From the NCBI GenBank assembly GCA_965220085.1, contig CBDCOZ010000003.1, positions 1,963,667 to 2,027,666 of the forward strand: a stretch of DNA of 64,000 nt, read 5' to 3'. Numbering within the stretch: the first letter of the stretch is position 1; each line of letters starts with the position of its first letter. Under the pieces are notes generated by a model, which was not told where the DNA came from, searched no databases, and saw only the letters and a list, made by a program, of their open reading frames with translations. The translations under genes and the position numbers were made by a program. Below are positions 894 through 58,468 of the stretch, in pieces. Source of the DNA: Candidatus Oxydemutatoraceae bacterium (GTDB lineage Bacteria; Pseudomonadota; Gammaproteobacteria; Poriferisulfidales; Oxydemutatoraceae).

Positions 894-1408
894 TGCCCCG
901 ACTCCCGCGCCGGGCGAATGATTGCCTGTTGCGCATCGTGCTTCCGGTTTGCGCTGCCCCGACTCCCGCGCCGGGCGAATGATCGCCTGTTGCGCATCGT
1001 GCTTCCGGTTTGCGTTGCCCCGACTCCCGCGCCGGGCGAATGATCGCCTGTTGCGCATCGTGCTTCCGGTTTGCGTTGCGCCGCCTCCCGCGCCGGGCGA
1101 ATGATTGCCTGTTGCGCATCGTGCTTCCGGTTTGCGCTGCCCCGACTCCCGCGCCGGGCGAATGATTGCCTGTTGCGCATCGTGCTTCCGGTTTGCGTTG
1201 CCCCGACTCCCGCGCCGGGCGAATGATCGCCTGTTGCGCATCGTGCTTCCGGTTTGCGTTGCCCCGACTCCCGCGCCGGACGAATGATCGCCTGTTGCGC
1301 ATCGTGCTTCCGGTTTGCGCTGCGCCGACTCCCGCGCCGGGCGAATGATCGCCTGTTGCGCATCGTGCTTCCGGTTTGCGCTGCCCCGACTCCCGCGCCG
1401 GGCGAATA
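894..1408. repeat. 61-bp direct tandem repeat, about 8.4 copies (unit ctgccccgactcccgcgccgggcgaatgattgcctgttgcgcatcgtgcttccggtttgcg)
   Basis: Near-perfect copies start at 894, 955, 1016, ... 1382. There are no spacers. The array sits inside the conserved 3' flank of the coiled-coil gene family, and the single-copy version lies at about 54470–54530. Confidence 0.95.
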
Positions 1409-3655: not shown

Positions 3656-5356
3656 TTATCGTAGCGGGCCTTCCAGGAAAAGGCGCAGGCGCAAGCGCAG
3701 ACCCGGGTCCGCGCCTTCCACTGCTATGCCAAAGGGCAGGCTGGCCGTATCGTCGCTTTCGGTGTTGTTGTCGGCATCCGCCACTGTCCAGATATAGGTA
3801 GCGGAAGTCGCCGCCGCTCTGGGGATGCCGCTGATGGTGCGGGTGGCGGGCTCAAGGCTTAGGCCCGCCGGCAGAGCCGGGGTCAGGGCATAGGTCAGCT
3901 CACCATTGCCGCCGCTGGCCGCAGGCAGGGTCAGGTCGGTGATGGCGGCGCCGGTCACCCAGCTCTGGTCGGCGATGGCGGCATCGGCGGCAAAGGCCGG
4001 CGCCGTATCCGTACTTACCTCTATGCCGAAGGTCAGCGTATCGGTATCGTTGATCATGGTATTGCTGTCGCCATCGGAGACCCGGTAGGCATAGGTGACA
4101 CTTGTAGCGGAGGCAGGTGTGCCGCTGATAGTACGCGTGTCGGCATCAAAGGCGAGACCCGCGGGCAACGCCGGAATCAGGGCATAGGTCAGCGCGCCAT
4201 CGCCGCCGCTGGCCGCAGGCAACACCACATCGGTGATGGCGGCGCCGATGATCCAAACCTGATCATCCGCCGAGGCATCGCCAAAGGCGGGCACACTGTT
4301 CACCAGCCTGCCGACGCTGCATCGCTCCTCGGAGGCCGGAGGGGAGAACTGATCCATAAAGGAAACGCAGACGCGTATGTGCTTGCCGGTCTGGGCCGCA
4401 AGCGGTGTGAAGTCGGAGAAAGTGATGCCTGTGGCAGTGGCGCCGGGTATATCGCTGTAATCACTGGTTAAAGGGGCGCGACCTCTGTCGGGGGAAGCGC
4501 CCTGTTGCCACTTCCAGGCCAGGGTAGCGACATCGATGCCGTTGGGTTCTGTCACACCGGTTATCGATGCCGTAAGCGGCACACCTACGTAATAGGCGGT
4601 GGCGGCGCCCGTAGCAGTCGCTACCGTGGGCACACCGCTGGCGGCCGTCTGCGTGGATGCCCCTGCCAGGTTGATGGTCATCGTGGCCTCAGTAGCAACT
4701 GGCGATGTTCCAAATGTTTCGATGCTGAAGCGGAAACTGGTAGCGGTGACAGAGATGTCATCGGTTGGCGGGGTGTATCGGAGTTTGTTTTCGGAGTTGG
4801 CAGGTGAAAAATGAGGCATGTGGAATGAGCGACCCCTCTGGTTATCACGACCGAGCTGGCCGATGAAGAGATTGAAGGTGCCATCGTCCTCATAGAAAAG
4901 GGTGCCAAGATCAGGCAAACTTTCGATGTACAGGGTGCCGCCTGTGAAACCGGGGAAGTCGGCCAACCGGAAAGTATAAGTGTCCCCGCCAAGTTCGACA
5001 TCAACACTGCTGTCTTGGGCGGTTTGCGCGTTCGCCCCGGTTGCGCCCAATGCCAGGCACAGCGCGGCCGCGCCGATGCGCCGCAAAATTGCGTAACCCG
5101 CGTCTGCGTCAAGGGGCAGGCAATGTATGGCAACCGCGACGATGCGACGCGCCGCCGCCCGCGCGGGTGCGAAGAGCGCCGCAAACCATAGCGCAAGCCG
5201 AGGCGCCGCCGGAAGACGCATCCGCGTTGCGGATGGCGAGTTGCGGTGTGCGGGTGGCAGAAAGCGAGCGGCGAGGCGATATAGCCGGGAGTCCGCAATC
5301 CCCCTATTTACACAGCGCACGGGGGAGGGGGGGGGGGGGGGGGGTAGTATTAACAT
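3656..5356 (-). CDS. Secreted Ig/cadherin-like repeat protein, paralog 'A' of the 57.4–64 kb array. Ends in RLRLRLFLEGPLR. The 5' end is uncertain or degenerate.
   Basis: The C-terminal ~150 aa and the 3' flank are near-identical to 57417..58292 and 61894..62735. Domain-like TMTINL segments are present. A poly-C tract follows the candidate starts. Confidence 0.65.
   Translation of the reverse strand: MLILPPPPPPSPVRCVNRGIADSRLYRLAARFLPPAHRNSPSATRMRLPAAPRLALWFAALFAPARAAARRIVAVAIHCLPLDADAGYAILRRIGAAALCLALGATGANAQTAQDSSVDVELGGDTYTFRLADFPGFTGGTLYIESLPDLGTLFYEDDGTFNLFIGQLGRDNQRGRSFHMPHFSPANSENKLRYTPPTDDISVTATSFRFSIETFGTSPVATEATMTINLAGASTQTAASGVPTVATATGAATAYYVGVPLTASITGVTEPNGIDVATLAWKWQQGASPDRGRAPLTSDYSDIPGATATGITFSDFTPLAAQTGKHIRVCVSFMDQFSPPASEERCSVGRLVNSVPAFGDASADDQVWIIGAAITDVVLPAASGGDGALTYALIPALPAGLAFDADTRTISGTPASATSVTYAYRVSDGDSNTMINDTDTLTFGIEVSTDTAPAFAADAAIADQSWVTGAAITDLTLPAASGGNGELTYALTPALPAGLSLEPATRTISGIPRAAATSATYIWTVADADNNTESDDTASLPFGIAVEGADPGLRLRLRLFLEGPLR
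5327..5344. repeat. Homopolymeric G18 tract (C18 on the coding strand), preceded by GGGGGA
   Basis: Counted directly. It lies just 3' of two alternative ATGs (5369 and 5356) that are in different frames. Confidence 0.95.
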
Positions 5357-5599: not shown

Positions 5600-5740
5600 A
5601 CCACAGAGTACGGGTCATTTGCAAGCGCCTCCTGCCCTGCTCCCCTTGTCTGCGCCCCATATGCTCCCCTGCTCCGCCGCAGGATACTCGCGCTATCGCA
5701 ACGGGCCTTCCAGAAAAAGGCGCGGGCACAGGGCGGCGGG
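5600..5740. other. Orphan degenerate copy of the family 3'-boundary element (…TACTCGCGCTATCGCAACGGGCCTTCCAGAAAAAGGCGCGG…) with no attached gene
   Basis: Aligns to the conserved 3' tail/boundary at 3579–3700 and to the 58.6, 60.4, 61.9 and 62.9 kb junctions. Confidence 0.5.
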
Positions 5741-6015: not shown

Positions 6016-8316
6016 TTGAAAAAGAAAGTCATCTCCAAAGCAACCGCCAAACGGTTACAAAAACCGCAGACACGACCGCCGGGCTCCGGGTTGCTCAAAC
6101 GCCTGCGCACCGCCATCGGCGCCATGCTGGTTGTCATCATCGCTTACCTGTTATTGGTATTGCTCGGCTACCACCCCGACGACCCGTCGTGGGCAAACAA
6201 TGTTCCTGCCGACCAAACCCGCAATCCCGGCGGCGTCATCGGCGCATGGATTGCATACACCTTGTATTTTTTCCTCGGCGGCCCGGCGCTTGTTTTGTTC
6301 CCGCTCGCCATCGGCCTGAGCGCGTGGCACTACTTTAAGCAGGAAGAGAGCGCCCCGTCCTTTCTCAACGAGCACCTGATCAACTGGCTGACATTTGTGC
6401 TGACGATCATCGCGTGTTGCGGGCTGGCATCGCTGCATTTTGTCGGCCACGAACTGCCATTGACGGCGGGCGGGCGGGTCGGCGAGGTGGCGGCGCGCAA
6501 TTTTGTCAGCGTATTCGGAATGGTCGGCTCCACGGTGCTATTGACCGGCCTTGCGGTCACCGGCTTCACCCTGATGACCGGCATTTCGTGGCTCAAAGTC
6601 ATGGATGCCATCGGCGCTTCGATATTCCGCCTGCTGGATTGGGGCAAAGAGCTGCGCGAACGCCGCGCCACGCAACTCGCCGCGGAAGACCGAGAGAAGA
6701 GAATCGTGCAAAGGAAGAAAAAGTTGTCTATTGATACGCCGCCGCGGATTGAACCGCAGGTCAAATCGGTCGGGCCGAGCAAACGCCAGCGGCGCGAGCG
6801 GCAGATCGGATTGCCCCAAGTGAAATCGTCCGATGAGTTGCCGGCGCTGAGTTTGCTGGATGCCTCGGCCGAAGAAGTCGCGGCGTATTCCGAAAAAGAG
6901 CTCAACCAAATGGCGAAGCAATTGGAGATCAAGTTGCAGGACTTCGGCATTGAAGCGGAGGTCACCGAAGCGCAGCCCGGCCCGATCATCACGCGCTTTG
7001 AATTGTTGCCGGCGCCCGGCACCAAAGCGTCCTCTATCAGCAATCTGGAGAAGGACCTGGCGCGCTCCATGTCGGTTCCGAGTCTGCGCGTCGTTGAAGT
7101 GATTCCGGGCAAATCGGTGGTCGGCATAGAAATTCCGAATCAGCGACCGTCCGTTGTGCGGCTGGGAGAAATTCTCGGTTCGCAAAAATACGACGAAGCC
7201 AAATCGCCTCTGACGCTCGCGCTCGGCAAAGGCATTACCGGCGAAGCGACGATGGTGAATCTGGAAAGCCTGCCCCATCTGCTGGCGGCGGGCACGACCG
7301 GGGCCGGCAAGTCGGTGGCGGTACATGTCATGCTGCTCAGTCTCTTGTTTAAGAATCTTCCCCGACAGGTGCGCCTGATTCTGATCGACCCCAAGATGCT
7401 GGAACTCAAAACCTACGAAAACATCCCCCACTTGCTGACGCCGGTGATTACCGATATGAACGAAGCAGCCGGCGTCCTGAACTGGGCGGTGGCCGAAATG
7501 GAACGGCGTTATCAATTGATGGCAAGCGTCGGCGCGCGCAATATCGGCGGGCTGAACCAGCGCATCGCCGAAGCGCAGAACCGCGGGCAGCCGCTGCGCG
7601 ACCCGTTGCTTGAGAATAGCGACGGCGAAGAGGGGGAAGCGAATGAGGCGCCGCTGCTGGAAGCGATGCCCTATATCGTCATCGTCATAGACGAGTTTGC
7701 GGACATGATGATGGTCGCCGGCAAAAAAGTCGAGGAACTGATTATCCGCCTGGCGCAAAAAGCCCGCGCCGCCGGCCTGCACCTGATTCTTGCGACCCAA
7801 CGGCCTTCCGTCGATATCATCACCGGTCTGGTCAAAGCAAACATTCCGGCGCGGATCGCTTTTCAGGTGTCGTCCAAAGTCGATTCGCGAACCATCCTGG
7901 ACCAAAACGGCGCCGAACAACTGCTCGGCAAAGGCGACATGTTATTCCTCGCCCCCGGCGGCGGCTTGCCGGAACGCATCCACGGCGCGTTTGTCAGCGA
8001 TCGGGAAGTCGCCAAGGTGACGGATTTTCTGCGCCGGACGGGAACGCCGCAATACGAAGACCTGCTCGCTGCGCCGACAGCCGGCGCGGGCGGCGCGGGC
8101 GGCGGACAAGGCGATGACCCGCTGTTTGACGAAGCCGTCGCCATCGTCACCGCATCCAACAAGGCCTCCATATCGCATCTGCAACGCCGCCTCAAGATCG
8201 GCTATAACCGCGCCGCCAGAATGATAGAGGACATGGAAGCCGCCGGCATTGTCAGCGCGGTGCAATCCAACGGCAGCCGCGAAGTGCTGGCGCCGCGCGA
8301 AGGTCGCGAATCATGA
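6016..8316 (+). CDS. ftsK: DNA translocase FtsK
   Basis: TTG start. Has N-terminal TM helices, a Pro/Gln-rich linker, Walker A GTTGAGKS and a C-terminal gamma winged-helix ([28 protein letters not shown]). Confidence 0.95.
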
Positions 8317-9125
8317 TGCGCCGCCTCAAGATCGGCTATAACCGCGCCGCCAGAATGATAGAGGACATGGAAGCCGCCGGCATTGTCAGCGCAGCGCAAT
8401 CCAACGGCAGCCGCGAAGCGCTGGCGCCGCGCGAAGGTCGCGAATCATGATGCGCCGCCTCAAGATCGGCTATAACCGCGCCGCCAAAATGACAGAGGAC
8501 ATGGAAGCCGCCGGCATTGTCAGCGCAGCGCAATCCAACGGCAGCCGCGAAGCGCTGGCGCCGCGCGAAGGTCGCGAATCATGATGCGCCGCCTCAAGAT
8601 CGGCTATAACCGCGCCGCCAAAATGACAGAGGACATGGAAGCCGCCGGCATTGTCAGCGCAGCGCAATCCAACGGCAGCCGCGAAGCGCTGGCGCCGCGC
8701 GAAGGTCGCGAATCATGATGCGCCGCCTCAAGATCGGCTATAACCGCGCCGCCAGAATGACAGAGGACATGGAAGCCGCCGGCATTGTCAGCGCAGCGCA
8801 ATCCAACGGCAGCCGCGAAGCGCTGGCGCCGCGCGAAGGTCGCGAATCATGATGCGCCGCCTCAAGATCGGCCATAACCGCGCCGCCAGAATGACAGAGG
8901 ACATGGAAGCCGCCGGCATTGTCAGCGCAGCGCAATCCAACGGCAGCCGCGAGGCGCTGGCGCCGCGCGAAGGTCGCGAATCATGATGCGCCGCCTCAAG
9001 ATCGGCTATAACCGCGCCGCCAGAATGACAGAGGACATGGAAGCCGCCGGCATTGTCAGCGCAGCGCAATCCAACGGCAACCGCGAAGCGCTGGCGCCGC
9101 GCGAAGGTCGCGAATCATGATGCGC
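8183..9125 (+). repeat. 134-bp tandem array of 7 copies: the ftsK 3' end plus the ATGA junction, with 6 extra copies before lolA
   Basis: ATGATGCGCCGCCTC recurs at 8313, 8447, 8581, 8715, 8849, 8983 and 9117 (period 134). The copies differ by a few point substitutions. Confidence 0.95.
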
Positions 9126-9731
9126 CGCCTCGGACTTTTGCTCTTGTGGCTGCCGTGTGTCGGCTCCGCCGGCGCACTCGACGACCTCTACCACTTTTTT
9201 CAGGCGACAACATTTGAGGCAGACTTTGCGCAGAAAGTCTATGACGATGAAGATCAATTGCTGGAGACTTCCCAAGGCTTTGTGCTGTTCCGCCGCCCGG
9301 GGCAATTCCGCTGGGAATACCGCGCGCCCGAAAGTTACATCATCACGACCGACGGCATCAATCTGCTCGTCTATGACCCGGCTTTGTCTCAGGCCTATGT
9401 TCGCCCGACGATGGAAGCGCTCGGCACCGCGCCTTTGCGCCTGCTGTTAGACCGCCGCCGGGTCTTTGATGATTTTGATTTGGAACCGGTTGCGCGCGCC
9501 GACAAACTGAAGTGGGTACGCTTGACTCCGAAAGTGGACGACACCGAATTCACGCATTTTGAAGTCGGCTTTGCCGGGCACGGGATCAGCCGCATGGCGT
9601 TGTTCGATCGCTTTGATCAACGCATAGACATACGCTTTGACAATGTGAAGATCAACCCGGCGATAGCGGCAAGCCGTTTCAAACTCCGGTTGCCGCCGGA
9701 CACCGATGTCATCGGCGACTACCTGCGCTGA
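9117..9731 (+). CDS. lolA: Outer-membrane lipoprotein carrier protein LolA
   Basis: Has a signal peptide [20 protein letters not shown] and LolA-like sequence throughout. Conserved ftsK–lolA synteny. Confidence 0.9.
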
Positions 9732-10455
9732 ACCGAACCGCTATGCGGCCGGCGAGCGGAACAGCTTGGAAACGGGATTGACGTTTTTCACTTCCATCTG
9801 ATCGACGCGCTTGCCGGCTTGCGTCAGGCCGTTAAACGACGGGCACACAAACAGGTTGCCATTCGCGGCAAGCCGTTTCAAACTCCGGTTGCCGCCGGAC
9901 ACCGATGTCATCGGCGACTACCTGCGCTGAACCGAACCGCTATGCGGCCGGCGAGCGGAACAGCTTGGAAACGGGATTGACGTTTTTCACTTCCATCTGA
10001 TCGACGCGCCTGCCGGCTTGCGCCAGGCCGTTAAACGACGGGCACACAAACAGGTTGCCATTCGCGGCAAGCCGGTTCAAACTCCGGTTGCCGCCGGACA
10101 CCGATGTCATCGGCGACTACCTGCGCTGAACCGAACCGCTATGCGGCCGGCGAGCGGAACAGCTTGGAAACGGGATTGACGTTTTTCACTTCAAACTGAT
10201 CGACGCGCCTGTCGGCTTGCGTCAGGCCGTTAAACGACGGGCACACAAACAGGTTGCCATTCGCGGCAAGCCGGTTCAAACTCCGGTTGCCGCCGGACAC
10301 CGATGTCATCGGCGACTACCTGCGCTGAACCGAACCGCTATGCGGCCGGCGAGCGGAACAGCTTGGAAACGGGATTGACGTTTTTCACTTCAAACTGATC
10401 GACGCGCCTGTCGGCTTGCGTCAGGCCGTTAAACGACGGGCACACAAACAGATTG
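9671..10455. repeat. ~180-bp tandem array of about 4.3 copies spanning the convergent 3' ends of lolA (+) and the nucleotidyltransferase gene (−)
   Basis: GCAAGCCGTTTCAAACTCCGG recurs at about 9671, 9871, 10051 and 10231. Each unit carries the lolA stop and the C-terminal codons of the minus-strand gene. Confidence 0.9.
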
Positions 10456-11054
10456 CCACTCACCGCGAGGCGCCGTTGTTCGCGGATTGAAAAGGCGGCC
10501 GCTTCCAGAAATGTCGCGACATCGCGGAAAAAATAGGTGCCGGCGGAAGCGTGTTCGGAAATCACGCGCTTTTCCGCCGTCGCGGTCACACGCCCGCGCG
10601 CGTCAATCGCAAGATAGCTGTAGCAGGCATCATCGGCGCGAAACCACGGAATCAAACCCGACGAATCGGCATCCGCCAACCAGACATCGATCTGCTCCGC
10701 GTCCGCATCGTAGATGATATCGGCGAGGTCTATGCACAGCGGCTCCTCCAAGCGCGCGCTGGCCGACACGCCGGCGACGGCGGAAAGCAGCGCCCCGCGC
10801 GTCGGGCTATTCAAATATGCCTTCTGCGCGCCGACAAAACAGCGGTCAAGAAAGCGGGCGATGGCAGCCGATTCGGGCACATCGGCGCGCAATACAAAAA
10901 TCAGGTCGGCGCTCGCCACAACGCCATCGCGCCACCATGGCCGCGATGTCAAAACCCGTTCTATCAGCGGCGTTCCGTCGACTTCCGACAAAGGCTTGAC
11001 GCAACCGTTTGCGCGAACGATATCGGCGCCGGCCAGAGGAACCACGCAGATCAT
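10338..11054 (-). CDS. Sugar-phosphate nucleotidyltransferase family protein (MobA-like NTP_transferase fold)
   Basis: MICVVPLAG…KPL…GTPLIERVL. The start was chosen at the ATGA overlap with the upstream gene's stop. Confidence 0.55.
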   Translation of the reverse strand: MICVVPLAGADIVRANGCVKPLSEVDGTPLIERVLTSRPWWRDGVVASADLIFVLRADVPESAAIARFLDRCFVGAQKAYLNSPTRGALLSAVAGVSASARLEEPLCIDLADIIYDADAEQIDVWLADADSSGLIPWFRADDACYSYLAIDARGRVTATAEKRVISEHASAGTYFFRDVATFLEAAAFSIREQRRLAVSGNLFVCPSFNGLTQADRRVDQFEVKNVNPVSKLFRSPAA

Positions 11055-12535
11055 TGCGACAGGAAATCGATGTGGCGCTTCAGGTCTTGCGGGGCGCCCA
11101 AACCGTGCATCGCGCTCGCCGGCACTTCGTACACGCCGATGTGACAACCGGCGGCAATCGCATGGTTGTAAACCGGGCAGACATAGAACTCGTTGTTGGT
11201 TCTGTCTTCTTTGACGATCATATCCATCGCCGCGGCGAAGAAGTCGCCGGCGGACATGAACAAATAAATGCCGACCGTCGCGAGATCGGAGATGGGTTGC
11301 TTTTCCCGCACTTGGGTAACCAAACCGTTGTCGCTGACACGGGCAAACGACCACTTGGGGTCGCGCGCTTCGTCGCGAAACACAAGAATGGAACCGTCCA
11401 ACTGCCGCTGTCGGCAATCGGCGACAAAAGCGTTTGCATCAAAGTCGACGATCTGGTCGCAGTTCGCCAACAACAATGGCGCGCGCCAATCTATTTTGCG
11501 ATGCGCGCACAACGCGGTGCAAGCGGCCCCCTGCGTCAGACCCGTGATCGGGACGAAGGATGCTTTCCATTTTTGCTCCAGCATATCGACCATATCGGGG
11601 TATGCTTGCAGGTGTTCGCTCTGCGCGATCAGGACGTTATGGCCGTCGGCGACCCGCAGATTATCCATCACCCGCTCGACCATCGTCATGCCTTTGACAT
11701 CTATAAAAGGCTTGGGTTCCTTGTAACCGGCATCGACAAAACGGCTGCCCGCGCCCGCCATCGGAATCAACACCGTCACCGGCAAATTGCCGACGCTCTC
11801 CTCGCGCTTCTGACGGGAAAAACGGCGGTTATACTCCTGCAACTTTTTCGGCGAATAAAAACTGTGGTAACAACTCGCCGGAATGCGATGGAAACCGACT
11901 TTCTTGCCGGCAATGATCAACTGGTTCAAAGAGGGCGCGATATAAAAAGACCCCTCGTGGGTGTCTTGCAGCATGATCATTTGCTTGCTGGCCGCGACGA
12001 AATCGCGCCCTTTGCGGAAATAATAAAACCCGGCGATGGCATCGCGGCTGATCACCCGCTTCTCCGCCGCTTCATTGACCGTCTCCGGCTCATCGCTGCG
12101 GATATAAGACCACCGCGGGTGCGTAGAGGAGAATGTAATCACCCCCGCATCCAGTCGCCGGCTTTCAAAACCGGCGATGATAGCGAGCAAATCCGCGTCG
12201 ATGATCTGGTCGCCGTTGACGATCAACAACGGCTCGTCGTTGTCTATGTGGTCGACCGCCATCATCACCGAGCACACCGCGCCCGCGGTCGGGTAACGCA
12301 ACCCGACGATGATCGGGTCCTCCGCGCACGACATTTTGATCGTCCGATCAAGGCTGAATTGTTCGCACTCCTCGTCGTTGACGATAAATATCCGGCGGCC
12401 CATAAGCGGCGCCAACCCTTTCAATACGGATTCGATCATCGGCGTATCGGTCACCTCGATCAAGGGCTTGGGAAAATGAAACTCGGCGCGAGGAAACAAC
12501 TCGCTGCCGCCGGCGATGGGGATGACGATATTCAT
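11051..12535 (-). CDS. Tandem two-domain nucleotidyltransferase (two NTP_transferase domains)
   Basis: Two copies of the I(P)IAG(G)…KPLI(E/D)V…G.PMIE motif: MNIVIPIAGG and TVLIPMAGAGSRF. Confidence 0.55.
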   Translation of the reverse strand: MNIVIPIAGGSELFPRAEFHFPKPLIEVTDTPMIESVLKGLAPLMGRRIFIVNDEECEQFSLDRTIKMSCAEDPIIVGLRYPTAGAVCSVMMAVDHIDNDEPLLIVNGDQIIDADLLAIIAGFESRRLDAGVITFSSTHPRWSYIRSDEPETVNEAAEKRVISRDAIAGFYYFRKGRDFVAASKQMIMLQDTHEGSFYIAPSLNQLIIAGKKVGFHRIPASCYHSFYSPKKLQEYNRRFSRQKREESVGNLPVTVLIPMAGAGSRFVDAGYKEPKPFIDVKGMTMVERVMDNLRVADGHNVLIAQSEHLQAYPDMVDMLEQKWKASFVPITGLTQGAACTALCAHRKIDWRAPLLLANCDQIVDFDANAFVADCRQRQLDGSILVFRDEARDPKWSFARVSDNGLVTQVREKQPISDLATVGIYLFMSAGDFFAAAMDMIVKEDRTNNEFYVCPVYNHAIAAGCHIGVYEVPASAMHGLGAPQDLKRHIDFLSQ

Positions 12536-13206
12536 CGCGCCTCCTGCGAACGGTTTTGTAGCGCGTTGATGCGGGAGCAAATATGCGGGTAAATCACATC
12601 GCGCACCCCCGCGACCTCCATCACATGGGCGCCGCTGGCGCGGGCGGCGGCGAGACCGCGCTCATTGTCCTCGATGATCAGGCACGCATCGGGCTTGAAA
12701 CCGAATCGCTTCATCGCCGTCAGATACATCTCCGGATCCGGTTTGGGCTTTTGCACATCCTCGTTGGAGAGATAAAAATCCGCATATTCCGTCAGGCCGG
12801 ACAACTCCAGCATCCGCGTCATGGAATCGCGCACCGAATTGGAACAGATCGCAATGCCATAGCCGTCCTGTTTGAGACGGGAAACGGCGTATTGAATGTG
12901 GAAGATCGGATAACATTTTGTCGCCACGATCTGTTGCGTATAACGTTGCTTCAAATCATTCAGAAACCCGTGCAAGGCGCGCGGCAAACCCCTGGTATCC
13001 GACAGCATCTCCAGTTTCTTGCGCGTCGGCAAACCGTCAAACGTCACGAGGTGGTCATCGCGGCTAATCTCCATCCCGAACAACGCCAGCGCTCGATTGA
13101 GCGCTTCGTAATGCCACTCGCGCGCATCGACCAGAACGCCGTCCATGTCAAACAGCACGGCTTTTATTTCAGACATCAAAAAACTCCTTCGCTTGTTGCG
13201 GAAAAT
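12532..13206 (-). CDS. HAD-superfamily hydrolase, subfamily IA
   Basis: Has VLFDMDGVLVD motif I and the downstream HAD motifs. The start was chosen at MSEIK. Confidence 0.75.
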   Translation of the reverse strand: MFRNKRRSFLMSEIKAVLFDMDGVLVDAREWHYEALNRALALFGMEISRDDHLVTFDGLPTRKKLEMLSDTRGLPRALHGFLNDLKQRYTQQIVATKCYPIFHIQYAVSRLKQDGYGIAICSNSVRDSMTRMLELSGLTEYADFYLSNEDVQKPKPDPEMYLTAMKRFGFKPDACLIIEDNERGLAAARASGAHVMEVAGVRDVIYPHICSRINALQNRSQEAR

Positions 13207-13807
13207 CGGTGCACAAAAGTATCGCGGCATGTATTTCTTCGCGCCATAGTTTCCAATTATCCCATACCCGCCGATGTTCGCGACCGTGCAACTCCGGCGA
13301 GACCAAAGCCACGCGCTTGCCGGCTTGCGCATGCGCGCGCAATGCGTCCGGCGTCGCCCAATCCGCGCACAAGGCATCCAGCCAAACTCCCGCCGCCGCG
13401 GCGTAAAAGGCGGGAGTCGGTTCGCAGTCGCTGTGACGGGTATAGACGGGCAGACCCGCATCCAAGTAATGACGCATATCGGGGACCGACATGTCAAAAA
13501 GGAAATAGGCGGCGGGGTCGATTCCCGCCATCGCTTGCGCCACCCGTTCGCACAAGCCGTCGGCTTTGACGTTGAGCGCCAACATTCCCGCTTGCCCGCG
13601 CTCTTTCCATAACGCCACGACATCGGCGAAGGGCAGCGCGGGGCCGACCGGCGCATCGTGGCTCACGACCAGACCGCCGCCGGCATCGCGGATATCGGTT
13701 TCAACGCCGACCCCGGCGGCAAACCCGCGCGCAAAAGCGCCGAGGGTGTTTTGCTCCGCCGCATCGTTCCACCACCCGCGGTGGCTTAGAATCTGAAAAT
13801 CTTTCAT
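13169..13807 (-). CDS. Glycerophosphodiester phosphodiesterase-like (GDPD) protein
   Basis: SHRG…E.D…H motif at the N-terminus. Confidence 0.55.
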   Translation of the reverse strand: MKDFQILSHRGWWNDAAEQNTLGAFARGFAAGVGVETDIRDAGGGLVVSHDAPVGPALPFADVVALWKERGQAGMLALNVKADGLCERVAQAMAGIDPAAYFLFDMSVPDMRHYLDAGLPVYTRHSDCEPTPAFYAAAAGVWLDALCADWATPDALRAHAQAGKRVALVSPELHGREHRRVWDNWKLWREEIHAAILLCTDFPQQAKEFFDV

Positions 13808-16182: not shown

Positions 16183-16457
16183 ACACCGTCGAAGTCATCT
16201 ACGCCCAAGCGGATGCGCAGAAAAAAGTCACCCTGCGGCTTGAAGACGGCGCCACCGCCGAGGATGCCATCAAACGCTCCGGGCTGCTGACGCTGTTTCC
16301 GCAGATAGACTTGCGCCGCAATCAAGTCGGCATTTACGGACGGCCGGTCGCGCTGAACAAAGTCGTCCGCGCCGGCGACCGGGTGGAAATTTACCGCAGT
16401 CTGCACAAATCGCCCGTCGAACAGCGCCGCGAACGGGCGCGGAGCAGCGGGGCGTAA
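16179..16457 (+). CDS. ratB: RnfH/RatB family ubiquitin-like protein
   Basis: About 92 aa with a VEVIYA…GDRVEIYR pattern. Overlaps the ratA stop. Confidence 0.7.
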   Translation: MNTVEVIYAQADAQKKVTLRLEDGATAEDAIKRSGLLTLFPQIDLRRNQVGIYGRPVALNKVVRAGDRVEIYRSLHKSPVEQRRERARSSGA

Positions 16458-16800
16458 GCGCCGGGCCGGCTCATAGCAACTCTCTGCCGGCATTCGCCAG
16501 CATCCGTCGCAACGCAATCAAAGGCAAACCGATCAAGGCGCTGGGGTCGGCGCTCTCAATGCAAGAACACAATGCGATGCCGAGACTCTCGGAACGAAAG
16601 CTGCCGGCGCACTCCCACGGCGCGTAAGCGCGGGGCCGGCTCATAGCAACTCTCTGCCGGCATTCGCCAGCATCCGGCGCAACTCGATCAAAGGCAAACC
16701 GATCAAAGCGCTGGGGTCGGCGCTCTCAATGCAAGAACACAATGCGATGCCGAGACTCTCGGAACGAAAGCTGCCGGCGCACTCCCACGGCGCGTCGCGA
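16447..16800. repeat. 177-bp direct duplication (2 copies) at the convergent ratB/maf junction
   Basis: 16447–16623 is nearly identical to 16624–16800. Each copy carries the maf C-terminal codons (…[12 protein letters not shown]). Confidence 0.9.
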
Positions 16801-24402: not shown

Positions 24403-25335
24403 ATGTCTGCCGATGCGGCCACAATACCGCAATCAACCGATAATGAGGCTGTCGCAGTCTCATCCACCTCGCTGATTGCATTGGCACACGCCGCGCGCGG
24501 GCTCTCGCTAAACCCCAAACAGATCCGCGCGCGCACCAGCGATACGATGCAATCCCGCTTCAAGGGTCGCGGCATGGAATATGACGAGTCGCGCCCTTAT
24601 CAACCGGGTGATGATGTGCGCCATCTGGATTGGCGCGTGACAGCGAGAAGCAATGCGACCTATACGAAAACATTTCAGGAAGAACGCGAACGACCGGTGT
24701 TCTTGTGGGTGGATAACCGCGGGCCGATGTTCTTTGCAACACGCGGCAAATTCAAATCGGTTGTTGCGGCGGAAATAGCGGCGCTGCTGGGTTGGAGCGC
24801 CACACACCGCGGCGATCGCGTCGGCGGCGCGGTATTTTTCGGTGAAGAACACCACGAGGTAAAGCCCATGCGCGGGCGACGCGGCATCCTGCGCTTGCTC
24901 CATTACCTGTCGCAACCGCCCCTTGACGGGATCAGTGACACAGCACTCGGCATACCGCTGAACAGAATGTCGCGCATCGCCCGCCCCGGCAGTCTGGTTA
25001 TCCTGATCAGCGACTTTCGCCAGTGCGATGAGCGGGCACAGACTAATCTGCGGCGCCTTGCGGCGCACAGCGAGTTGGTTATGCTTCAGGTGTATGACAC
25101 GCTCGAACAAGAACTGCCGCCGCCGGGGGATTATCGGGTCAGCGACGGGCGCAACGAGGTGCGGTTTGCTTCGCGCGATAGCGCCTTGCGCAAAACCTAT
25201 CGCGATGCGTTTGCGCAGCGCACGCAACTGACGATGAGTCTGGCAAAGAAACTGCGTTCTGCGTATCTTCGCTGTCGCACAAGCGATAATCCTCTGACCG
25301 TGTTGAAAGGAACGTTTGGAGCCCGCAGCCGATGA
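24403..25335 (+). CDS. DUF58 domain protein
   Basis: Partner of MoxR in Bat operons, with a VWA-like fold signature. Confidence 0.8.
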   Translation: MSADAATIPQSTDNEAVAVSSTSLIALAHAARGLSLNPKQIRARTSDTMQSRFKGRGMEYDESRPYQPGDDVRHLDWRVTARSNATYTKTFQEERERPVFLWVDNRGPMFFATRGKFKSVVAAEIAALLGWSATHRGDRVGGAVFFGEEHHEVKPMRGRRGILRLLHYLSQPPLDGISDTALGIPLNRMSRIARPGSLVILISDFRQCDERAQTNLRRLAAHSELVMLQVYDTLEQELPPPGDYRVSDGRNEVRFASRDSALRKTYRDAFAQRTQLTMSLAKKLRSAYLRCRTSDNPLTVLKGTFGARSR

Positions 25336-25791
25336 ACCCGGAAGCGATCGGCGAACTCCTTGCGCAACTGACGATGAGTCTGGCAAAGAAACTGCGTTCT
25401 GCTTATCTTCGGTGTCGCACAAGCGATAATCCTCTGACCGTGTTGAAAGGAACGTTTGGAGCCCGCAGCCGATGAACCCGGAAGCGATCGGCGAACTCCT
25501 TGCGCAACTGACGATGAGTCTGGCAAAGAAACTGCGTTCTGCTTATCTTCGGTGTCGCACAAGCGATAATCCTCTGACCGTGTTGAAAGGAACGTTTGGA
25601 GCCCGCAGCCGATGAACCCGGAAGCGATCGGCGAACTCCTTGCGCAACTGACGATGAGTCTGGCAAAGAAACTGCGTCCTGCTTATCTTCGGTGTCGCAC
25701 AAGCGATAATCCTCTGACCGTGTTGAAAGGAACGTTTGGAGCCCGCAGCCGATGAACCCGGAAGCGATTGGCGAACTCCTTGCGCAACTGC
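25221..25791 (+). repeat. 140-bp tandem array of 4 copies: the DUF58 3' end plus the DUF4381 5' end
   Basis: GCCCGCAGCCGATGAACCCG recurs at 25321, 25461, 25601 and 25741. Confidence 0.95.
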
Positions 25792-29030: not shown

Positions 29031-30694
29031 TGAGAGTTGCCCAAGCGGTCTTGATCGGCATATCGCTGCTCGCGGTCACGGCGATGGCGGCGGATGTGCG
29101 CACGGTCGTCAAACGCAACCAGATTGAGATCGGCGAATCGTTTCAGGTGGAATTCGTAAGCAACAAGAAAGACACGGGCGCGCCGGATTTTTCGCCGCTT
29201 AACAAAGACTTCCGGGTGTTGGGGAGGAATCAAAAATCCACGCAAAGCATCATCAACGGGGTCGTGAAAATAGAGAAGAAGTGGATCGTGGAGTTATCGC
29301 CCAAGCGCGCCGGGCGGCTGAAAATTCCGGCATTGAACTTTGGCAATGCGAAGAGCCGGGAAGCGTTTGTGCGGGTGAAAAAAGCAAAACCTGCGGCGCC
29401 CGGCAAGGCGGAGGACATCTTTATGGAGATGACAGCGCAACCCTTGTCGCCTTATGTGCAGGCGCAGGTTCTGGTCATTACGCGCCTGTATACGATCAAG
29501 AGCCTGCGCGGGTCGATCAGCGATATTGCGGCGGAAAGCGATGCCATCATAAAGAAGGTCGGCGATGCGAAGAACTACAGGAAGGCGCATCGCGGACGCA
29601 ACTACAACATACACGAAAACCGCTACTTCGTTTATCCGCAAAACAGCGGCGCTGTCAAGATCAAGCCGCCGCAACTGGACGCGCAGTACACCGAGCGGGG
29701 GCGGCGTTATACGGTGCGCAAATCGGCCGCGCCGGTGACCCTCAATGTGCGCCCGGCGCCCGCTTCTTTTACCGGCGTTGCGTGGCTGCCCGCCGAAAGG
29801 ATACGGCTGTCCGAAACGTGGTCGGAAGATTTGGCGTCCCTGCAGGCGGGCGCGCCGCTTGTGCGCACGATAGCCATCAAAGGGCGCGGCATTTCAAGCG
29901 CGCAGTTGCCGGAAATCAAACAGGATGAGGTCGATAATCTCCGGCTCTATCCCGAGCAGGCGACGCTCAAAGACAATACGGGGAATACGCTGGACTCGGA
30001 ACGCATCCAAAAGTTTGTGTTGATTCCGTCTCAGGCGGGGCAGTACAGGCTGCCGGAGATTCGCATCCCGTGGTGGAATACCAAAACCGATAAGACCGAA
30101 TATGCCACCTTGCCGGCGCGGACTCTGTCGGTTGAGGAAGCGGCGGCGGGGTTGATTATCACGCCCGAACCGGTTGTCGCATCGCAGCAAGCAGCGCCCG
30201 TCGGCGATAGCGACGACAGCAATCTGTGGGCGTGGGTCAGCGCTTTGATGTTGCTCGGGTGGAGCGCGACCGGCGCGCTGGTATGGAAACAGCGGGGCAT
30301 CGTCGCGGCTCATGCGGCTGCTGCGACCGATAACCGGCGCAAAGAGGAGAAGCAGGCGGCGAACTTGCGGCGCTGTCGCAGGCAGTTGGAAAAAGCATGC
30401 GCGAACGACGACCGCCTGGCAACCAGAAATACCATGTTGCGCTGGGCCAAACTGATGTGGCCCGACAGGGATACGAAGTCTCTCGGGCAGTTGGCGCTGT
30501 TGGCCGATGATGCCGCGCTGGTCGAAGAGATCAGGCGATTGGATGAGGCGCTTTATTCCGAGCACAGCGATTGGAGCGGCAAGGAGATGTGGACGGCGTT
30601 GCAAGCCTGCTCCGAAACCGCGAAGGAACGACCCGCCGGTCGGTTTGCCAGAAAAAAATCCGGCGGGCTGGCGGCGTTGCACAAACTGAAGTGA
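29024..30694 (+). CDS. batD: BatD family protein
   Basis: Signal peptide and C-terminal TM helix. Position in the operon. Confidence 0.75.
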   Translation: MVMRVAQAVLIGISLLAVTAMAADVRTVVKRNQIEIGESFQVEFVSNKKDTGAPDFSPLNKDFRVLGRNQKSTQSIINGVVKIEKKWIVELSPKRAGRLKIPALNFGNAKSREAFVRVKKAKPAAPGKAEDIFMEMTAQPLSPYVQAQVLVITRLYTIKSLRGSISDIAAESDAIIKKVGDAKNYRKAHRGRNYNIHENRYFVYPQNSGAVKIKPPQLDAQYTERGRRYTVRKSAAPVTLNVRPAPASFTGVAWLPAERIRLSETWSEDLASLQAGAPLVRTIAIKGRGISSAQLPEIKQDEVDNLRLYPEQATLKDNTGNTLDSERIQKFVLIPSQAGQYRLPEIRIPWWNTKTDKTEYATLPARTLSVEEAAAGLIITPEPVVASQQAAPVGDSDDSNLWAWVSALMLLGWSATGALVWKQRGIVAAHAAAATDNRRKEEKQAANLRRCRRQLEKACANDDRLATRNTMLRWAKLMWPDRDTKSLGQLALLADDAALVEEIRRLDEALYSEHSDWSGKEMWTALQACSETAKERPAGRFARKKSGGLAALHKLK

Positions 30695-31440
30695 ACCGCC
30701 TTATGCGAACCGCCGACCTGTTAATCCATGCGCACCGAGTCCTGCCGATTAATCCGGCAAACACGGTGTTGAATGCCCACAGCGTGGCGGTAAGCGCCGG
30801 CAGGATTGCCGCCGTGATGCCGAGCGCTGATGCGCGTCGCAACTGGCTGGCGGCGTTGCACAAACTGAAGCGAACCGCCTTATGCGAACCGCCGACCTGT
30901 TAATCCATGCGCACCGAGCCCTGCCGATCCGCCCGGCAAACACGGTGTTGAATGCCCACAGCGTAGCGGTGCGCGATGGCCGGATTGCCGCCGTGATGCC
31001 GAGCGCCGATGCGCGTCGCAACTGGCTGGCGGCGTTGCGCAAACTGAAGCGAACCGCCTTATGCGAACCGCCGACCTGTTAATCCATGCGCACCGAGTCC
31101 TGCCGATCCGCCCGGCAAACACGGTGTTGAATGCCCACAGCGTAGCGGTGCGCGATGGCCGGATTGCTGCTGTGATGCCGAGCGCTGACGCGCGCCGCAA
31201 CTGGCTGGCGGCGTTGCGCAAACTGAAGCGAACCGCCTTATGCAAACCGCCGACCTGTTAATCCATGCGCACCGAGTCCTGCCGATCCGCCCGGCAAACA
31301 CGGTGTTGAATGCCCACAGCGTAGCGGTGCGCGATGGCCGGATTGCCGCTGTGATGCCGCCCGCTGACGCGCGCCGCAACTGGCGGCGTTGCACAAACTG
31401 AAGCGAACCGCCTTATGCGAACCGCCGACCTGTTAATCCA
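30666..31440 (+). repeat. 179-bp tandem array of about 5 copies: the batD 3' end plus the first ~150 nt of mtaD
   Basis: ATGCGAACCGCCGACCTG recurs at 30703, 30882, 31061, 31240 and 31415. The last spacing is 175. Confidence 0.95.
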
Positions 31441-32730
31441 TGCGCACCGAGTCCTGCCGATTAATCCGGCAAACACGGTGTTGAATGCCCACAGCGTAGC
31501 GGTGCGCGATGGCCGGATTGCCGCCGTGATGCCGAGCGCCGACGCGCGTCGCAACTGGCGGGCGCAACAGTCTGTTGACTTGCCGAGCCATGTCCTGATG
31601 CCGGGGTTGGTAAACGCGCATACGCATACGCCGATGAGTTTGTTGCGCGGCTTCGCCGATGATATGCCGCTGATGTCGTGGTTGCGCGATTACATCTGGC
31701 CGGCGGAACGGCGCTGGGTCAGCCGCGAATTCGTGCGCGCCGGATCGCACCTCGCTTATGCCGAACTTTTGCGCGGCGGGGTGACGTGCTTTAACGATAT
31801 GTACTTCTTTCCGCAGGTCAGCGCGCAACTTGCCGACGAGACGGGCATCCGCGCCTGTATCGGCATGCTGGTGATGGATCTCGCAACCGCCTACGCCGAC
31901 AATCCGGAGCAGTATCTGGAGAAAGGGCTTGAATTGCGCGCACAATTTCATGATCACCCGACCGTGCATCCGGTGTTGGCGCCGCACGCGCCTTATACGG
32001 TGTCCGATGAATACCTGCGGCGCATCGCCGCGCTCGGCGACGAACTCGACTTGCAAATTTGCATGCACCTGCACGAGACTGCGCAAGAGATAGAAGACTC
32101 CCTCAAGCAATATGGCAGTCGTCCGTTGCGGCGGGTGGCCGCGCTCGGCTTATTGTCTTCGCGGTTGCTGGCGGTGCACGCGGCGCACTTGCAAGACGAT
32201 GAAATCCGCGCGCTGGCCGAAGCCGGTGCGGCGGTGATTCACTGCCCCGAATCCAACTTGAAACTGGCCAGCGGTTTTTGTCCGGCGCAAAAGTTAGCGG
32301 ACGCGGGGGGTGTGTCGCACTCGGCACCGACGGCGCGGCCAGCAACAATGATCTTGACATGATCGGAGAAATGCAAACCGCGAGTTTGCTGGCCAAGGGC
32401 GTCGGCAAAGATGCGACCGCGATGCCCGCGCATCGCGCATTGGAAATGGCGACACTGGCCGGCGCGCGCGCGCTCAAACTGGACGACCGTATCGGTTCGG
32501 TTGAAGTCGGCAAAAGCGCGGACTTGATAGCCATAGACCTGAGCGGGGCGGAAGCGAGACCGCTGTATGATATCGCATCGCATCTGGTCTACGCGACCGA
32601 CAGGCGGCAAGTCAGCGATGTCTGGGTGGCCGGGCGGCGGCTGTTGCAGAACCGCACATTGACGACGATTGACATCGACGCGCTCGGCCCGCGAGCGCTT
32701 GAAGGGGAGCGGAAAATCAGCGGCGGATGA
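31415..32730 (+). CDS. mtaD: 5-methylthioadenosine/S-adenosylhomocysteine deaminase (amidohydrolase), with an apparent −1/+2 frameshift at a G6 run (32305–32310)
   Basis: HxH metal motif (VNAHTHTPMSLLRG) in frame 1. …ALGTDGAASNNDLDM…SADLIAIDLS in a second frame starting at 32278. One extra G restores ADAGGCVALGTDG. Confidence 0.8.
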
Positions 32731-33292
32731 CTACGCGCAATCTTCTTCGCGGAACCATGCATTGACGACGATTGACATCGACGCGCTCGGCCCGCGAGCG
32801 CTTGAAGGGGAGCGGAAAATCAGCGGCGGATGACTATCTGCAGTCTTCGTCTTCGCGGAACCATGCATTGACGACAATTGACATCGACGCGCTCGGCCCG
32901 CGAGCGCTTGAAGGGGAGCGGAAAATCAGCGGCGGATGACTACGCGCAGTCTTCTTCGCGGAACCATGCATTGACGACGATTGACATCGACGCGCTCGGC
33001 CCGCGAGCGCGCGCTCAAACTGGATGACCGTATCGGTTCGGTTGAAGTCGGCAAAAGCGCGGACTTGATAGCCACAGACCTGAGCGGAGCGGAAGCGAGA
33101 CCGCTGTACGATATCGCATCGCATCTGGTCTACGCGACCGACAGGCGGCAAGTCAGCGATGTCTGGGTGGCCGGGCGGCGGCTGTTGCGGAACCGCACAT
33201 TGACGACGATTGACATGGACGCGCTCGGCCCGCGAGCGCTTGAAGGGGAGCGGAAAATCAGCGGCGGATGACTACCTGCAGTCTTCGTCTTC
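32437..33292. repeat. Nested duplications of the mtaD 3' end and the convergent PLD-gene 3' end (~92-bp units and a ~280-bp segment repeated)
   Basis: TTGACGACGATTGACATCGACGCGCTCGGCCCGCGAGCGCTTGAAGGGGAGCGGAAAATCAGCGGCGGATGACTAC occurs 4 times. 32440–32730 is about the same as 33010–33290. Confidence 0.85.
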
Positions 33293-34684
33293 GCGATCCT
33301 TTTTCTTGTCAAAATCGTTATCTATGCCGTCGCTACAAGAGTCGCGCGAGAACTCTGATTCCGGCGGCGGATTGCCGTGGAGCCATTCGCCGGGAATCGA
33401 TTCCCACAACTCGTTAAAAAAGGCGGTCAGGCAGGCGGCCTTTGCCGACGCATCCAAAAGAATAATGGTATTCTCATCGTTATACCTCTCCCCCGCGTTA
33501 GTCCAATTCATGGAACCGATGATGATGTGTTTGTTGTCGATGATCGCGGTCTTCGCGTGCATCTTCCCGCCCCACGACTCAACCTTGAGTTTGACATCGT
33601 GATTGCGCAGGTATTCGTGCTTGCTGTAAGAGTTCTTTGCGGCCGTCGCATCCAGTATCACCCGCACTCGCACGCCTCTTTCTTGCGCAAAACGCAGCTC
33701 CTTCGCAACTTCTTTGTGGGTCAGGTAGAAAATCATCACGTCGATGGATTCCTTCGCCCCGTGAATCAGCCCGAGCACACGGCTCATCGCAGGAGACTGC
33801 GGTGAGAAATACAACTGCAAATTCTGCGCGCCGACCTTGGCCGTCAAGTGTTGCGTTTTATAGCGCGCCTTGTTGCGATGATATCTGCCGCCAAACATCT
33901 GATTAAACTCGCCGGCATAGAAATCCGCGACTTCTTCCGAGTCAATCACGATGACGGTGTTCGCGTTGTAACCCCCGATTCCAGTATCGCTCACGTTCGC
34001 CGAGCCCGTCCATACCCAGCGCCCGTCGATGACAAAGAACTTGTTGTGCATCAAATTGCCTCTGAAGTTTATCTTCTTTTTGCTCGCATAACCCCTGCCG
34101 CCGAAACACTGCGTCGGGCCCAGGCTGTCGTCATCGGGCACCTTGCAATAAGGCTTGCTCCTGAGGTCTTTGTCTCTTTTCTCCCGCGCGCGTTGTTTGT
34201 ATTCGTATTTCTTGCGCGCTTCTATGTCCGCCGCGCGGTCATCCCGCACATCCCCCAAGATGTTCTGCAAATAGTCGGTATCGGAATAGTAACTGCCGCC
34301 GTCGGCGTCCCTGTCCACGACGCCTCTGACCCGCACGCCGCGCTTTTCCGCATCGATCAAGGCTTGTACGATCTCTTTCTGCCCGCGTACGCCATACAGC
34401 GCGAAGTCAATGGTGGTTTGCGCATCATCGATCAGCTTTTTCAAAGCCTCGCACATCTCCGTCGTGCAACGGGGGTTCGGGCCTGTCGCCTCCAGCGGCG
34501 ATTGCGTGATGACAGATACGCGCGATTCGGGATGCGAGCACGTTGCCGATGCGGTTTGCGCAACGGCATAGCAGAGCGTTGCCAGCGCGCATATTGTTGC
34601 CACTGCAATGAGAGCCGGTTTCGCACCGGTCAATACACCGGTTAATGTCGTTTTATTCCGCATCGTCAAATAATAAAATAGCAC
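33272..34684 (-). CDS. Secreted phospholipase D-family protein (two HKD motifs)
   Basis: HNKFFVIDGRWVWTGSANVSD and HAKTAIIDNKHIIIGSMNWT. N-terminal signal peptide. Acidic, Cys-containing C-terminal tail. Confidence 0.75.
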   Translation of the reverse strand: MLFYYLTMRNKTTLTGVLTGAKPALIAVATICALATLCYAVAQTASATCSHPESRVSVITQSPLEATGPNPRCTTEMCEALKKLIDDAQTTIDFALYGVRGQKEIVQALIDAEKRGVRVRGVVDRDADGGSYYSDTDYLQNILGDVRDDRAADIEARKKYEYKQRAREKRDKDLRSKPYCKVPDDDSLGPTQCFGGRGYASKKKINFRGNLMHNKFFVIDGRWVWTGSANVSDTGIGGYNANTVIVIDSEEVADFYAGEFNQMFGGRYHRNKARYKTQHLTAKVGAQNLQLYFSPQSPAMSRVLGLIHGAKESIDVMIFYLTHKEVAKELRFAQERGVRVRVILDATAAKNSYSKHEYLRNHDVKLKVESWGGKMHAKTAIIDNKHIIIGSMNWTNAGERYNDENTIILLDASAKAACLTAFFNELWESIPGEWLHGNPPPESEFSRDSCSDGIDNDFDKKKDREDEDCR

Positions 34685-37006: not shown

Positions 37007-37166
37007 AATTATTTCGCAGTGTGTCAGCCACTATAGAACAAAGACCCAAAGGCTTCCTTGCCGTTGCCTGTGTTGACCCAAGACACCATGTGCATAGCAA
37101 GTTGCGCCTCGTACCTCTCAATTACACTTTCGGTCATGTTCTCTTAAATAAAGCTTTCAATTCTTA

Positions 37167-37934: not shown

Positions 37935-37937
37935 ATT

Positions 37938-39761: not shown

Positions 39762-39763
39762 AA

Positions 39764-41665: not shown

Positions 41666-41845
41666 GCTTCATAAGGCGTGAGATATGCACAAGTTTCAAT
41701 CGTTTCGTTTTTTTAATCAAAACCCTATCGATTTTACTCGTGAAAAGTTTGAACTTTAATCAAAAAAACGCCGCTGAACCTTCCTATAAGAAGAATTGAG
41801 CGACGCAACGAGTGGCACCATGCCGGAGATGTTGACGTTGTAGTA

Positions 41846-41940
<95 letters not shown>

Positions 41941-58461: not shown

Positions 58462-58468
58462 TTGTTTG

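Follow-up and report, generated by a model that had tools for sequence, protein, structure and literature searches.

A tandem array at the ftsK–lolA junction of a Candidatus Oxydemutatoraceae bacterium: probably a tolerated minisatellite with a passive ribosome relay

Introduction

Mycobacterial interspersed repetitive unit–variable-number tandem repeat (MIRU-VNTR) loci of Mycobacterium tuberculosis consist of tandem units of ∼50–130 bp between co-directional operon genes; each unit contains a small open reading frame (ORF) with −4 overlaps, and copy number varies among strains. According to the account of Supply et al. (1997) as it is summarized in PMC12548453, these intercistronic units are thought to be tolerated by keeping the −4 coupling. 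It has also been reported that translational coupling is most efficient at spacings of −4 to +3 nt, with −4 as the best arrangement, and declines with distance (PMC12548453). Here, we analyzed a 64,000-nt stretch of DNA from a Candidatus Oxydemutatoraceae bacterium (hereafter the window), in which the junction between ftsK and lolA is present as seven tandem copies, and compared this array with MIRU-VNTR loci and other described tandem repeats. All coordinates are positions within the window; tandem repeats were called by Tandem Repeats Finder (TRF) and domains by Pfam.

Tandem duplication mediated by microhomology has been documented as a class of mutation (PMC8639346). In its described examples, such as those in S. 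pombe (PMC8639346) and the classical bacterial slippage duplications, the repeated unit equals the spacing of two short direct repeats and one repeat arm is left over, which is also the case here. These duplications are usually two-copy, subclonal and fast-reverting, whereas the arrays reported below are fixed, have 4–8 copies and are 1–7% diverged. At the genome level, the closest parallel appears to be the tandem-repeat-rich Ehrlichia ruminantium. In what PMC10710844 relates of this organism (citing Collins 2005 and Frutos 2006), the likeness lies in a small host-associated genome, many arrays with periods of ∼100–200 bp outside intact coding sequence, and an active process of expansion and contraction; however, it is given as a member of a different phylum with low GC.

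Structure of the ftsK–lolA array

TRF placed the array at 8185–9131 (period 134 bp, 7.1 copies, 98% matches, score 1824). Cut in register, it consists of seven full 134-bp units, starting at 8185, 8319, 8453, 8587, 8721, 8855 and 8989, and of a 9-nt leftover CGCCGCCTC at 9123–9131 after unit 7, and its length is exactly 7 × 134 + 9. The units are arranged head to tail at a constant 134-bp spacing without any spacer, which is a defining feature of a minisatellite, and a chance origin is impossible for a 947-bp array at 98% identity. The copy number is based on one assembly, the sole carrier of this sequence in the collections searched (lolA product P0001, on a 2.05-Mb NCBI/ENA contig). The initial annotation of this DNA, made from the sequence alone, had described seven tandem copies of the junction, each containing the ftsK 3' end and the first lolA bases; both TRF and the dissection of the units agree with it. 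Its limits for the array (8183–9125) were nearly correct, being off by 2 and 6 nt.

The ftsK stop codon (TGA, 8314–8316) overlaps the start of the first of six 45-codon mini-ORFs (8313–8450, 8447–8584, 8581–8718, 8715–8852, 8849–8986 and 8983–9120), whose starts and ATGA chaining had all been annotated correctly. Each of them opens with the ATGATG of lolA and closes with the TGA of ftsK. The ATGA overlap, which corresponds to a spacing of −4, was found at all seven junctions (ftsK to the first mini-ORF, between mini-ORFs, and the sixth mini-ORF to lolA), and the spacing is therefore within the range of efficient coupling throughout. In addition, a Shine-Dalgarno-like AAGG is present 9 nt upstream of the ATG in every unit, which is the start context of lolA itself (AAGG-N9-ATG). 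The CGCCGCCTC of lolA directly follows its ATGATG, and the two CGCCGCCTC arms in ftsK and lolA share the same codon phase. Each unit is a closed 45-codon ORF because the ancestral junction had an ATGA overlap and the arms are in the same phase. The coordinates of all these features are listed in Table 1.

Table 1. Features of the ftsK–lolA array and positions of the other long-period arrays in the window
Feature	Position	Strand	Basis
ftsK, intact, 766 aa (4TM, alpha, motor, gamma)	6016..8316	+	ORF; Pfam FtsK_4TM, FtsK_alpha, FtsK_SpoIIIE, FtsK_gamma
Native FtsK gamma (KOPS-binding winged helix), residues 700–759	8113..8292	+	Pfam FtsK_gamma 3–62/63; PDB 2VE8/2VE9 alignment
Left microhomology arm CGCCGCCTC = FtsK R724-R725-L726	8185..8193	+	Sequence
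Unit 1: native ftsK 3' end (codons 724–766 and stop) plus 2 nt beyond	8185..8318	+	
Units 2–7: six extra 134-bp copies, 3–6 derived substitutions each	8319..9122	+	
Mini-ORF chain, 6 × 45 codons	8313..9120	+	ORF list; Pfam FtsK_gamma
Right microhomology arm CGCCGCCTC = LolA signal-peptide R3-R4-L5	9123..9131	+	Sequence
lolA, intact, 204 aa, start ATGA-coupled to mini-ORF 6	9117..9731	+	Pfam LolA; 100% identical database protein P0001
Array, 61 bp × 8.4, spacer between two convergent genes	894..1407	.	TRF, Pfam
Array, 199 bp × 4, lolA 3' end, intergenic DNA and 3' end of convergent gene	9666..10458	.	
Array, 170 bp × 2, over convergent RnfH/Maf 3' ends; 8-nt remainder CGG[G/C]GCGT	16448..16795	.	
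Array, 140 bp × 4, DUF58/DUF4381 junction	25223..25790	+	ORF map, Pfam
Array, 179 bp × 5, BatD/amidohydrolase junction	30666..31564	+	ORF map, Pfam
Nested duplications, 103-bp units within a 541-bp duplication, convergent amidohydrolase/PLD 3' ends	32457..33295	.	

Origin and history of the copies

The unit length equals the distance between the two CGCCGCCTC arms, and the incomplete final copy consists of one of these arms. This footprint at the borders of the array therefore indicates a microhomology-mediated tandem duplication. The direct-repeat arms are 9 bp long at ftsK–lolA and 8 bp in two of the other arrays in the window, and all testable features of such a duplication and of a minisatellite are present in the ftsK–lolA array.

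Comparison with relatives, which the initial annotation had recommended, revealed a single-copy junction in each of them. The relatives were L001–L003 (Logan contigs), L004 (a TARA metagenome scaffold), L005 (a Ca. Porisulfidus chromosome) and L085 (a 279-kb contig). In L001–L003 (LolA 77% identical), L004 (72%) and L005 (FtsK 70%), stop and start overlap at this single junction, and in L085 (LolA 57% identical) a gap of 9 nt lies between them. The sponge-associated Ca. Porisulfidus metagenome-assembled genome (MAG) L005 was the nearest named genome by FtsK identity, and the genome studied here likewise appears to be marine or sponge-associated. The right-hand CGCCGCCTC arm is missing in the relatives with a single junction. 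Judged from these sequences, the ancestral junction was a single copy. A search with LolA of the genome contigs of the GTDB representative genomes detected no relative, and scans of Joint Genome Institute (JGI) metagenomes with the exact array-junction sequence and with LolA gave no matches. As a separate difference near this locus, ∼3.5 kb (10338–13656) is inserted in comparison with L004 and L085, where smpB directly follows lolA; the insert contains a double nucleotidyltransferase, a HAD-family hydrolase and one ORF without assignment.

In an alignment of the seven units with three outgroups, copy 1, which is the functional ftsK end, did not differ from the outgroups at any informative variable site. 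The derived changes are nested: three are common to copies 2–7, a fourth to copies 3–7 and a fifth to copies 3 and 4, which are identical to each other, whereas copies 6 and 7 have private changes. The maximum divergence among copies is 6 of 134 nt. Such a pattern suggests one duplication, divergence of the unconstrained copy and then stepwise amplification. These point substitutions support the initial annotation, which had held that the array is not a trivial assembly stutter and did not arise very recently. The copy differences that it listed (Y/H, S/N and I/T) are all present, and we additionally identified R/K, V/A twice and two synonymous changes (eight sites in total).

A probable tolerated minisatellite with a proposed passive ribosome relay

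On the basis of these results, we consider the array most likely to be a fixed and moderately old tandem amplification of the ftsK–lolA junction, that is, a bacterial minisatellite or VNTR that is tolerated, with a passive ribosome relay and with peptides that are by-products (probability roughly 0.75). Slippage or template switching between the two 9-bp CGCCGCCTC sequences located 134 bp apart would have duplicated the junction. The second copy, being unconstrained, would then have gained three substitutions, and slippage or unequal recombination could have expanded it to six extra copies that diverged further. The duplication would persist because it spans the junction, which leaves an intact ftsK ending in the first copy and an intact lolA after the last one.

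Each unit has the ribosome-binding context of lolA and the stop codon of ftsK. A ribosome leaving ftsK may thus be handed on six times by termination–reinitiation at −4 until it reaches lolA, in which case the coupling of the two genes could survive the insertion of 804 bp. An out-of-phase insertion of 804 bp would separate the lolA start from the ftsK stop, whereas the in-phase chain would give six −4 hand-overs. The initial annotation had suggested a variable spacer acting on the translational coupling of lolA; this may hold in the form of a passive relay preserving the coupling, rather than of a demonstrated regulator.

The closed reading frames appear to be an automatic product of the junction. 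In all three arrays over co-directional genes, including the present one, the periods are 2 modulo 3, so that the frame of the downstream start runs into the frame of the upstream gene and its stop. Microhomologies of 8–9 nt between coding sequences of the window are in phase in 57–59% of cases, owing to codon bias. Since in-phase microhomologies are the majority class, closed ORFs need no selection; selection for in-phase junctions was examined as an explanation, and three in-phase arrays out of three (p ∼ 0.19) provide no evidence for it.

We also looked for other signals in and around the array. A scan of 7600–10600 for promoters and terminators revealed no sigma-70-like promoter, in the unit or around it, and the possibility that the array multiplies promoters was rejected for this reason. 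When one unit and the junctions were folded as RNA and compared with shuffled sequences, z values of 0 to +1.5 were obtained, with no special structure, and a small CGCGA-AGG-TCGCG hairpin over the Shine-Dalgarno-like AAGG was observed in one fold only. In Rfam, the window matched only four tRNAs, with nothing within the arrays. A diversity-generating retroelement was rejected because the substitutions are not adenine-specific and no reverse transcriptase was found among ∼30 window ORFs scanned against Pfam, which was not an exhaustive scan. A CRISPR-like array was also ruled out, as there are no spacers.

Several points weigh against this reading. Both the relay and the neutrality are things that we infer from the sequence, and eight substitutions are too few for a true test of neutrality by the ratio of non-synonymous to synonymous rates. 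One of the other arrays, the 179-bp array at BatD, has lost its interior stops, so the −4 relay is not kept everywhere. The accumulation of arrays in this lineage could stem from a defect in repair genes, from a small effective population size or from selection. Finally, the copy number rests on a single assembly.

Constraint on the mini-ORF peptides

The initial annotation had correctly recognized that the mini-ORFs encode the recognition helix and wing of the gamma domain (Pfam FtsK_gamma profile positions 27–61/63). The 45-aa peptide is homologous in this part to FtsK gamma (PF09397; PDB 2VE8/2VE9 and 2J5P), but it is shortened to the C-terminal 60% of the winged helix and has substitutions at invariant positions. 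The recognition helix and the wing are present together with the last part of helix 2, whereas helix 1 and the bulk of helix 2 are lacking. Because the first 26 profile positions are absent, it is not a complete three-helix winged helix (profile 1–63). The native gamma domain aligns along its length with the solved P. aeruginosa FtsK gamma (2VE8/2VE9).

Residue conservation was measured over the gamma domains of 84 FtsK orthologs, and the native copy has the consensus residue at all four positions discussed here. Y730, which is Y in all 84, is H in copy 6. R735, which is R in 82 of the 84 and never K, is K in copies 3 and 4. Position 737, where only I, V or M occur, is T in copies 3–7, and position 757, where only V or I occur, is A in copies 2–7. 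The conserved GYNRAAR of the recognition helix is broken by Y730H in copy 6 and by R735K in copies 3 and 4. All eight substitution events among the copies are transitions; six are non-synonymous and two synonymous, a 6:2 ratio that fits a roughly neutral expectation.

These replacements suggest that the extra copies evolve without FtsK-gamma constraint. Because constraint is lost and helix 1 is missing, a decoy or regulatory gamma peptide is unlikely, and the 45-aa peptides are unlikely to be functional FtsK gamma domains. Thus, the proposal in the initial annotation that free gamma-domain peptides might act is unsupported, given the replacement of Y730, R735, I737 and V757, the 6:2 ratio and the absence of helix 1 and most of helix 2. 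Most likely, the 45-aa gamma fragments are by-products that remain unfolded and are degraded. It should be noted that AlphaFold2 without an alignment predicted the 45-aa peptide as a low-confidence single helix (predicted local distance difference test score 67.5), which was set aside as uninformative; for the native 67-aa gamma domain, which served as the control, a single long helix was wrongly predicted instead of a winged helix, and this model was not used either.

Similar arrays elsewhere in the window

Besides ftsK–lolA, six further long-period, high-identity arrays with periods of 61–199 bp were identified in the first 33 kb of the window (Table 1). The description given in the initial annotation stands, but its locus-specific view overlooked these six arrays, one of which has an identical ATGA chain. 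This one is located at the DUF58/DUF4381 junction of a MoxR-Bat operon, which has a native ATGA overlap and an in-phase 8-bp microhomology, CGCAACTG. Three 47-codon mini-ORFs (MNPEAIGELLAQLTMSLAKKLRSAYLRCRTSDNPLTVLKGTFGARSR) are ATGA-chained there, which is exactly the architecture of the ftsK–lolA array, and the 47-aa DUF58/DUF4381 fusion had no Pfam match. In the BatD array, the BatD stop of the interior copies has changed from TGA to CGA, copies 1 and 5 have TAAT where copies 2–4 have CCGC, and the last junction has a 4-nt deletion; the lost stops and the deletion point to decay. A locus-specific function of FtsK or LolA is unlikely because similar arrays occur at these six other places, including the one with the identical chain.

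Three of the seven arrays cover co-directional junctions (ftsK/lolA, DUF58/DUF4381 and BatD/amidohydrolase), three cover convergent 3' ends (lolA/downstream gene, RnfH/Maf and amidohydrolase/PLD) and one is between convergent genes; lolA has arrays on both flanks. A gene end is part of six of them, none lies in the interior of a gene, and none of the periods is divisible by 3. We counted microhomology pairs of at least 8 bp located 60–200 bp apart and found 209 of them in the first 35 kb, 87% of which had both arms within one gene. All seven arrays fall into the minority class in which this is not so (p ∼ 6e−7). Placement outside gene interiors is expected from survivorship, because only duplications that leave every gene an intact copy persist. 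The amidohydrolase gene (31415–32730) is present in two frames (31415–32362 and 32278–32730) at a 6-G run (32300–32315), and is either a pseudogene or affected by a homopolymer consensus error.

Blastn of each unit against the window detected no copy beyond its own array, and the units of the seven arrays are mutually unrelated. Being unrelated and undispersed, they are therefore not a mobile family. MIRUs form one dispersed and apparently mobile family, whereas each array here is built from local gene ends, and the origin is a microhomology-mediated duplication instead of an insertion. The −4 coupled ORF of a MIRU is present, whereas the dispersed unit family was not detected by blastn within the window. 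Because this feature fails, the array is not a MIRU member, and on the sequence it appears to resemble a MIRU-VNTR locus in its working.

Among ∼500 kb of homologous loci on 84 other gammaproteobacterial contigs, one array with a period of at least 30 bp was detected, an unrelated palindromic intergenic one. A 20.6-kb syntenic stretch of a closer relative contained no array (∼520 kb and 85 contigs overall). The array habit is, on this comparison of sequences, specific to the present lineage. The one array detected in these loci, in the ftsK–lolA spacer of a Wenzhouxiangellaceae MAG (L080, 3905–4255, 93 bp × 3.8), was examined as a candidate parallel and rejected, as its units are palindromic (repetitive extragenic palindrome-like) and are not copies of gene ends.

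Alternative explanations

A more active role would be that of a copy-number-variable tuner, in which the number of termination–reinitiation steps or of repeated ribosome-binding sites sets the amount of LolA relative to FtsK and produces reversible heritable variants. Every unit does contain the lolA start context and the −4 overlap, 134-bp tandem arrays are expected to expand and contract, the identity of copies 3 and 4 suggests a recent expansion, and lolA is flanked by arrays on both sides. However, the same type of array is found at unrelated junctions, including convergent gene ends where a translational effect is impossible; the unit has no promoter-like site; a divergence of up to 6 of 134 nt indicates slow turnover and not rapid switching; and no matches came from the JGI metagenome scans, whether the array junction or LolA relatives were sought. 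We thus regard a tuner as unlikely. Peptides that act as decoys for KOPS (the FtsK orienting polar sequences) or XerD, or as other modulators of FtsK, are very unlikely: although the recognition helix and wing are encoded where translation is expected, the missing N-terminal 26 profile positions, the changes at invariant or nearly invariant residues and the near-neutral 6:2 ratio all argue against them, and the DUF58/DUF4381 chain encodes an unrelated fusion, so the architecture is independent of gamma content.

The two remaining explanations concern the reality and the source of the array. If the assembler had inflated the repeat, the true genome would have one copy or a different copy number. 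The presence of the sequence in only one assembly agrees with this, and so does the frameshift in the 6-G run of the nearby amidohydrolase gene, which could be a homopolymer error hinting at an imperfect consensus. Nevertheless, the eight variable sites form a nested genealogical pattern in which the functional copy is ancestral, all seven arrays avoid gene interiors although an assembler is blind to gene boundaries, and short-read assemblers collapse such repeats and do not expand them. The 2-Mb contig also suggests long reads, which would easily span 947 bp. An artefact is thus highly improbable, and the exact copy number could be polymorphic. Insertion of a mobile, MIRU-like intercistronic element at the start codon of lolA would lead to the same outcome of tandem units at an operon junction with ORFs coupled at −4 (PMC12548453), but here the unit comes from the resident ftsK 3' end, as its 98% identity to the native copy and its homology to the ftsK of relatives show, no further copy is present in the window and every array is built from a different local unit. 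The chance of such an element is close to negligible.

Implications

The array is real and probably neutral, it is neatly explained, and the mechanism is ordinary. Little effect on ftsK and lolA is probable, as neither gene is damaged and the additional peptides resemble junk. What the locus offers is a clean natural case in which duplication across an ATGA-overlapped gene pair automatically gives a closed, −4-coupled chain of mini-ORFs, and it could serve as a ready-made set of constructs to determine how efficient each termination–reinitiation step is. Annotation pipelines will label the mini-ORFs as FtsK-gamma-domain proteins, and flagging them avoids false gene families.

The genome-wide habit is more interesting than the ftsK–lolA locus itself. 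Two independent loci with the chain architecture and five other gene-end or intergenic arrays within 33 kb indicate an unusually frequent or persistent tandem amplification, which bears on how small host-associated genomes acquire non-coding DNA and small ORFs. As a speculative and rather doubtful extension, this uncultured lineage may run an unusual genome-wide mutational regime in which junction duplications are made or kept at a very high rate (an array every ∼5 kb over the first 33 kb) and then amplified, with ATGA pairs turning into self-templated relay chains that buffer coupling or, by changes in copy number, tune it. If this were true, it would represent a natural non-mobile counterpart to MIRUs, and gene ends would give rise to de novo small ORFs.

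Other features of the window

A low-GC island (37–41% versus ∼58%) is present at 36092–41940, with an adjoining tRNA (41851–41940). It contains genes for an AlwI-type restriction enzyme, an N6/N4 DNA methylase, a RadC-Dam methylase fusion and a DUF5655 protein. It is probably a restriction-modification island of horizontal origin.

Coiled-coil proteins composed of in-frame 27–135-bp repeats (KEEL/KKEL-type heptads) are encoded at 34–804, 54647–55702 and 56001–57101, the latter two being paralogs with a C-terminal membrane anchor.

Six proteins on the minus strand (3656–5356, 57417–58430, 58648–60387, 60454–61824, 61894–62658 and 62876–63988) end in an identical C-terminal tail, LRLRLFLEGPLR, followed by the stop codon. 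None had a match in NCBIfam, and the only domain found was a He_PIG Ig-like domain in one protein. A C-terminal sorting tag of an undescribed type is one possible reading of this tail. The genes share ∼70 nt of conserved 3' end and downstream DNA, and a decayed seventh copy is located at 5661–5730, upstream of ftsK. Adjacent perfect short-period arrays of 22 bp × 3.6 and 14 bp × 4.9 (58382–58534) overlap the 5' end of the ORF at 57417–58430 and reach into the spacer before 58648–60387, both of which belong to the LRLRLFLEGPLR-tail family.

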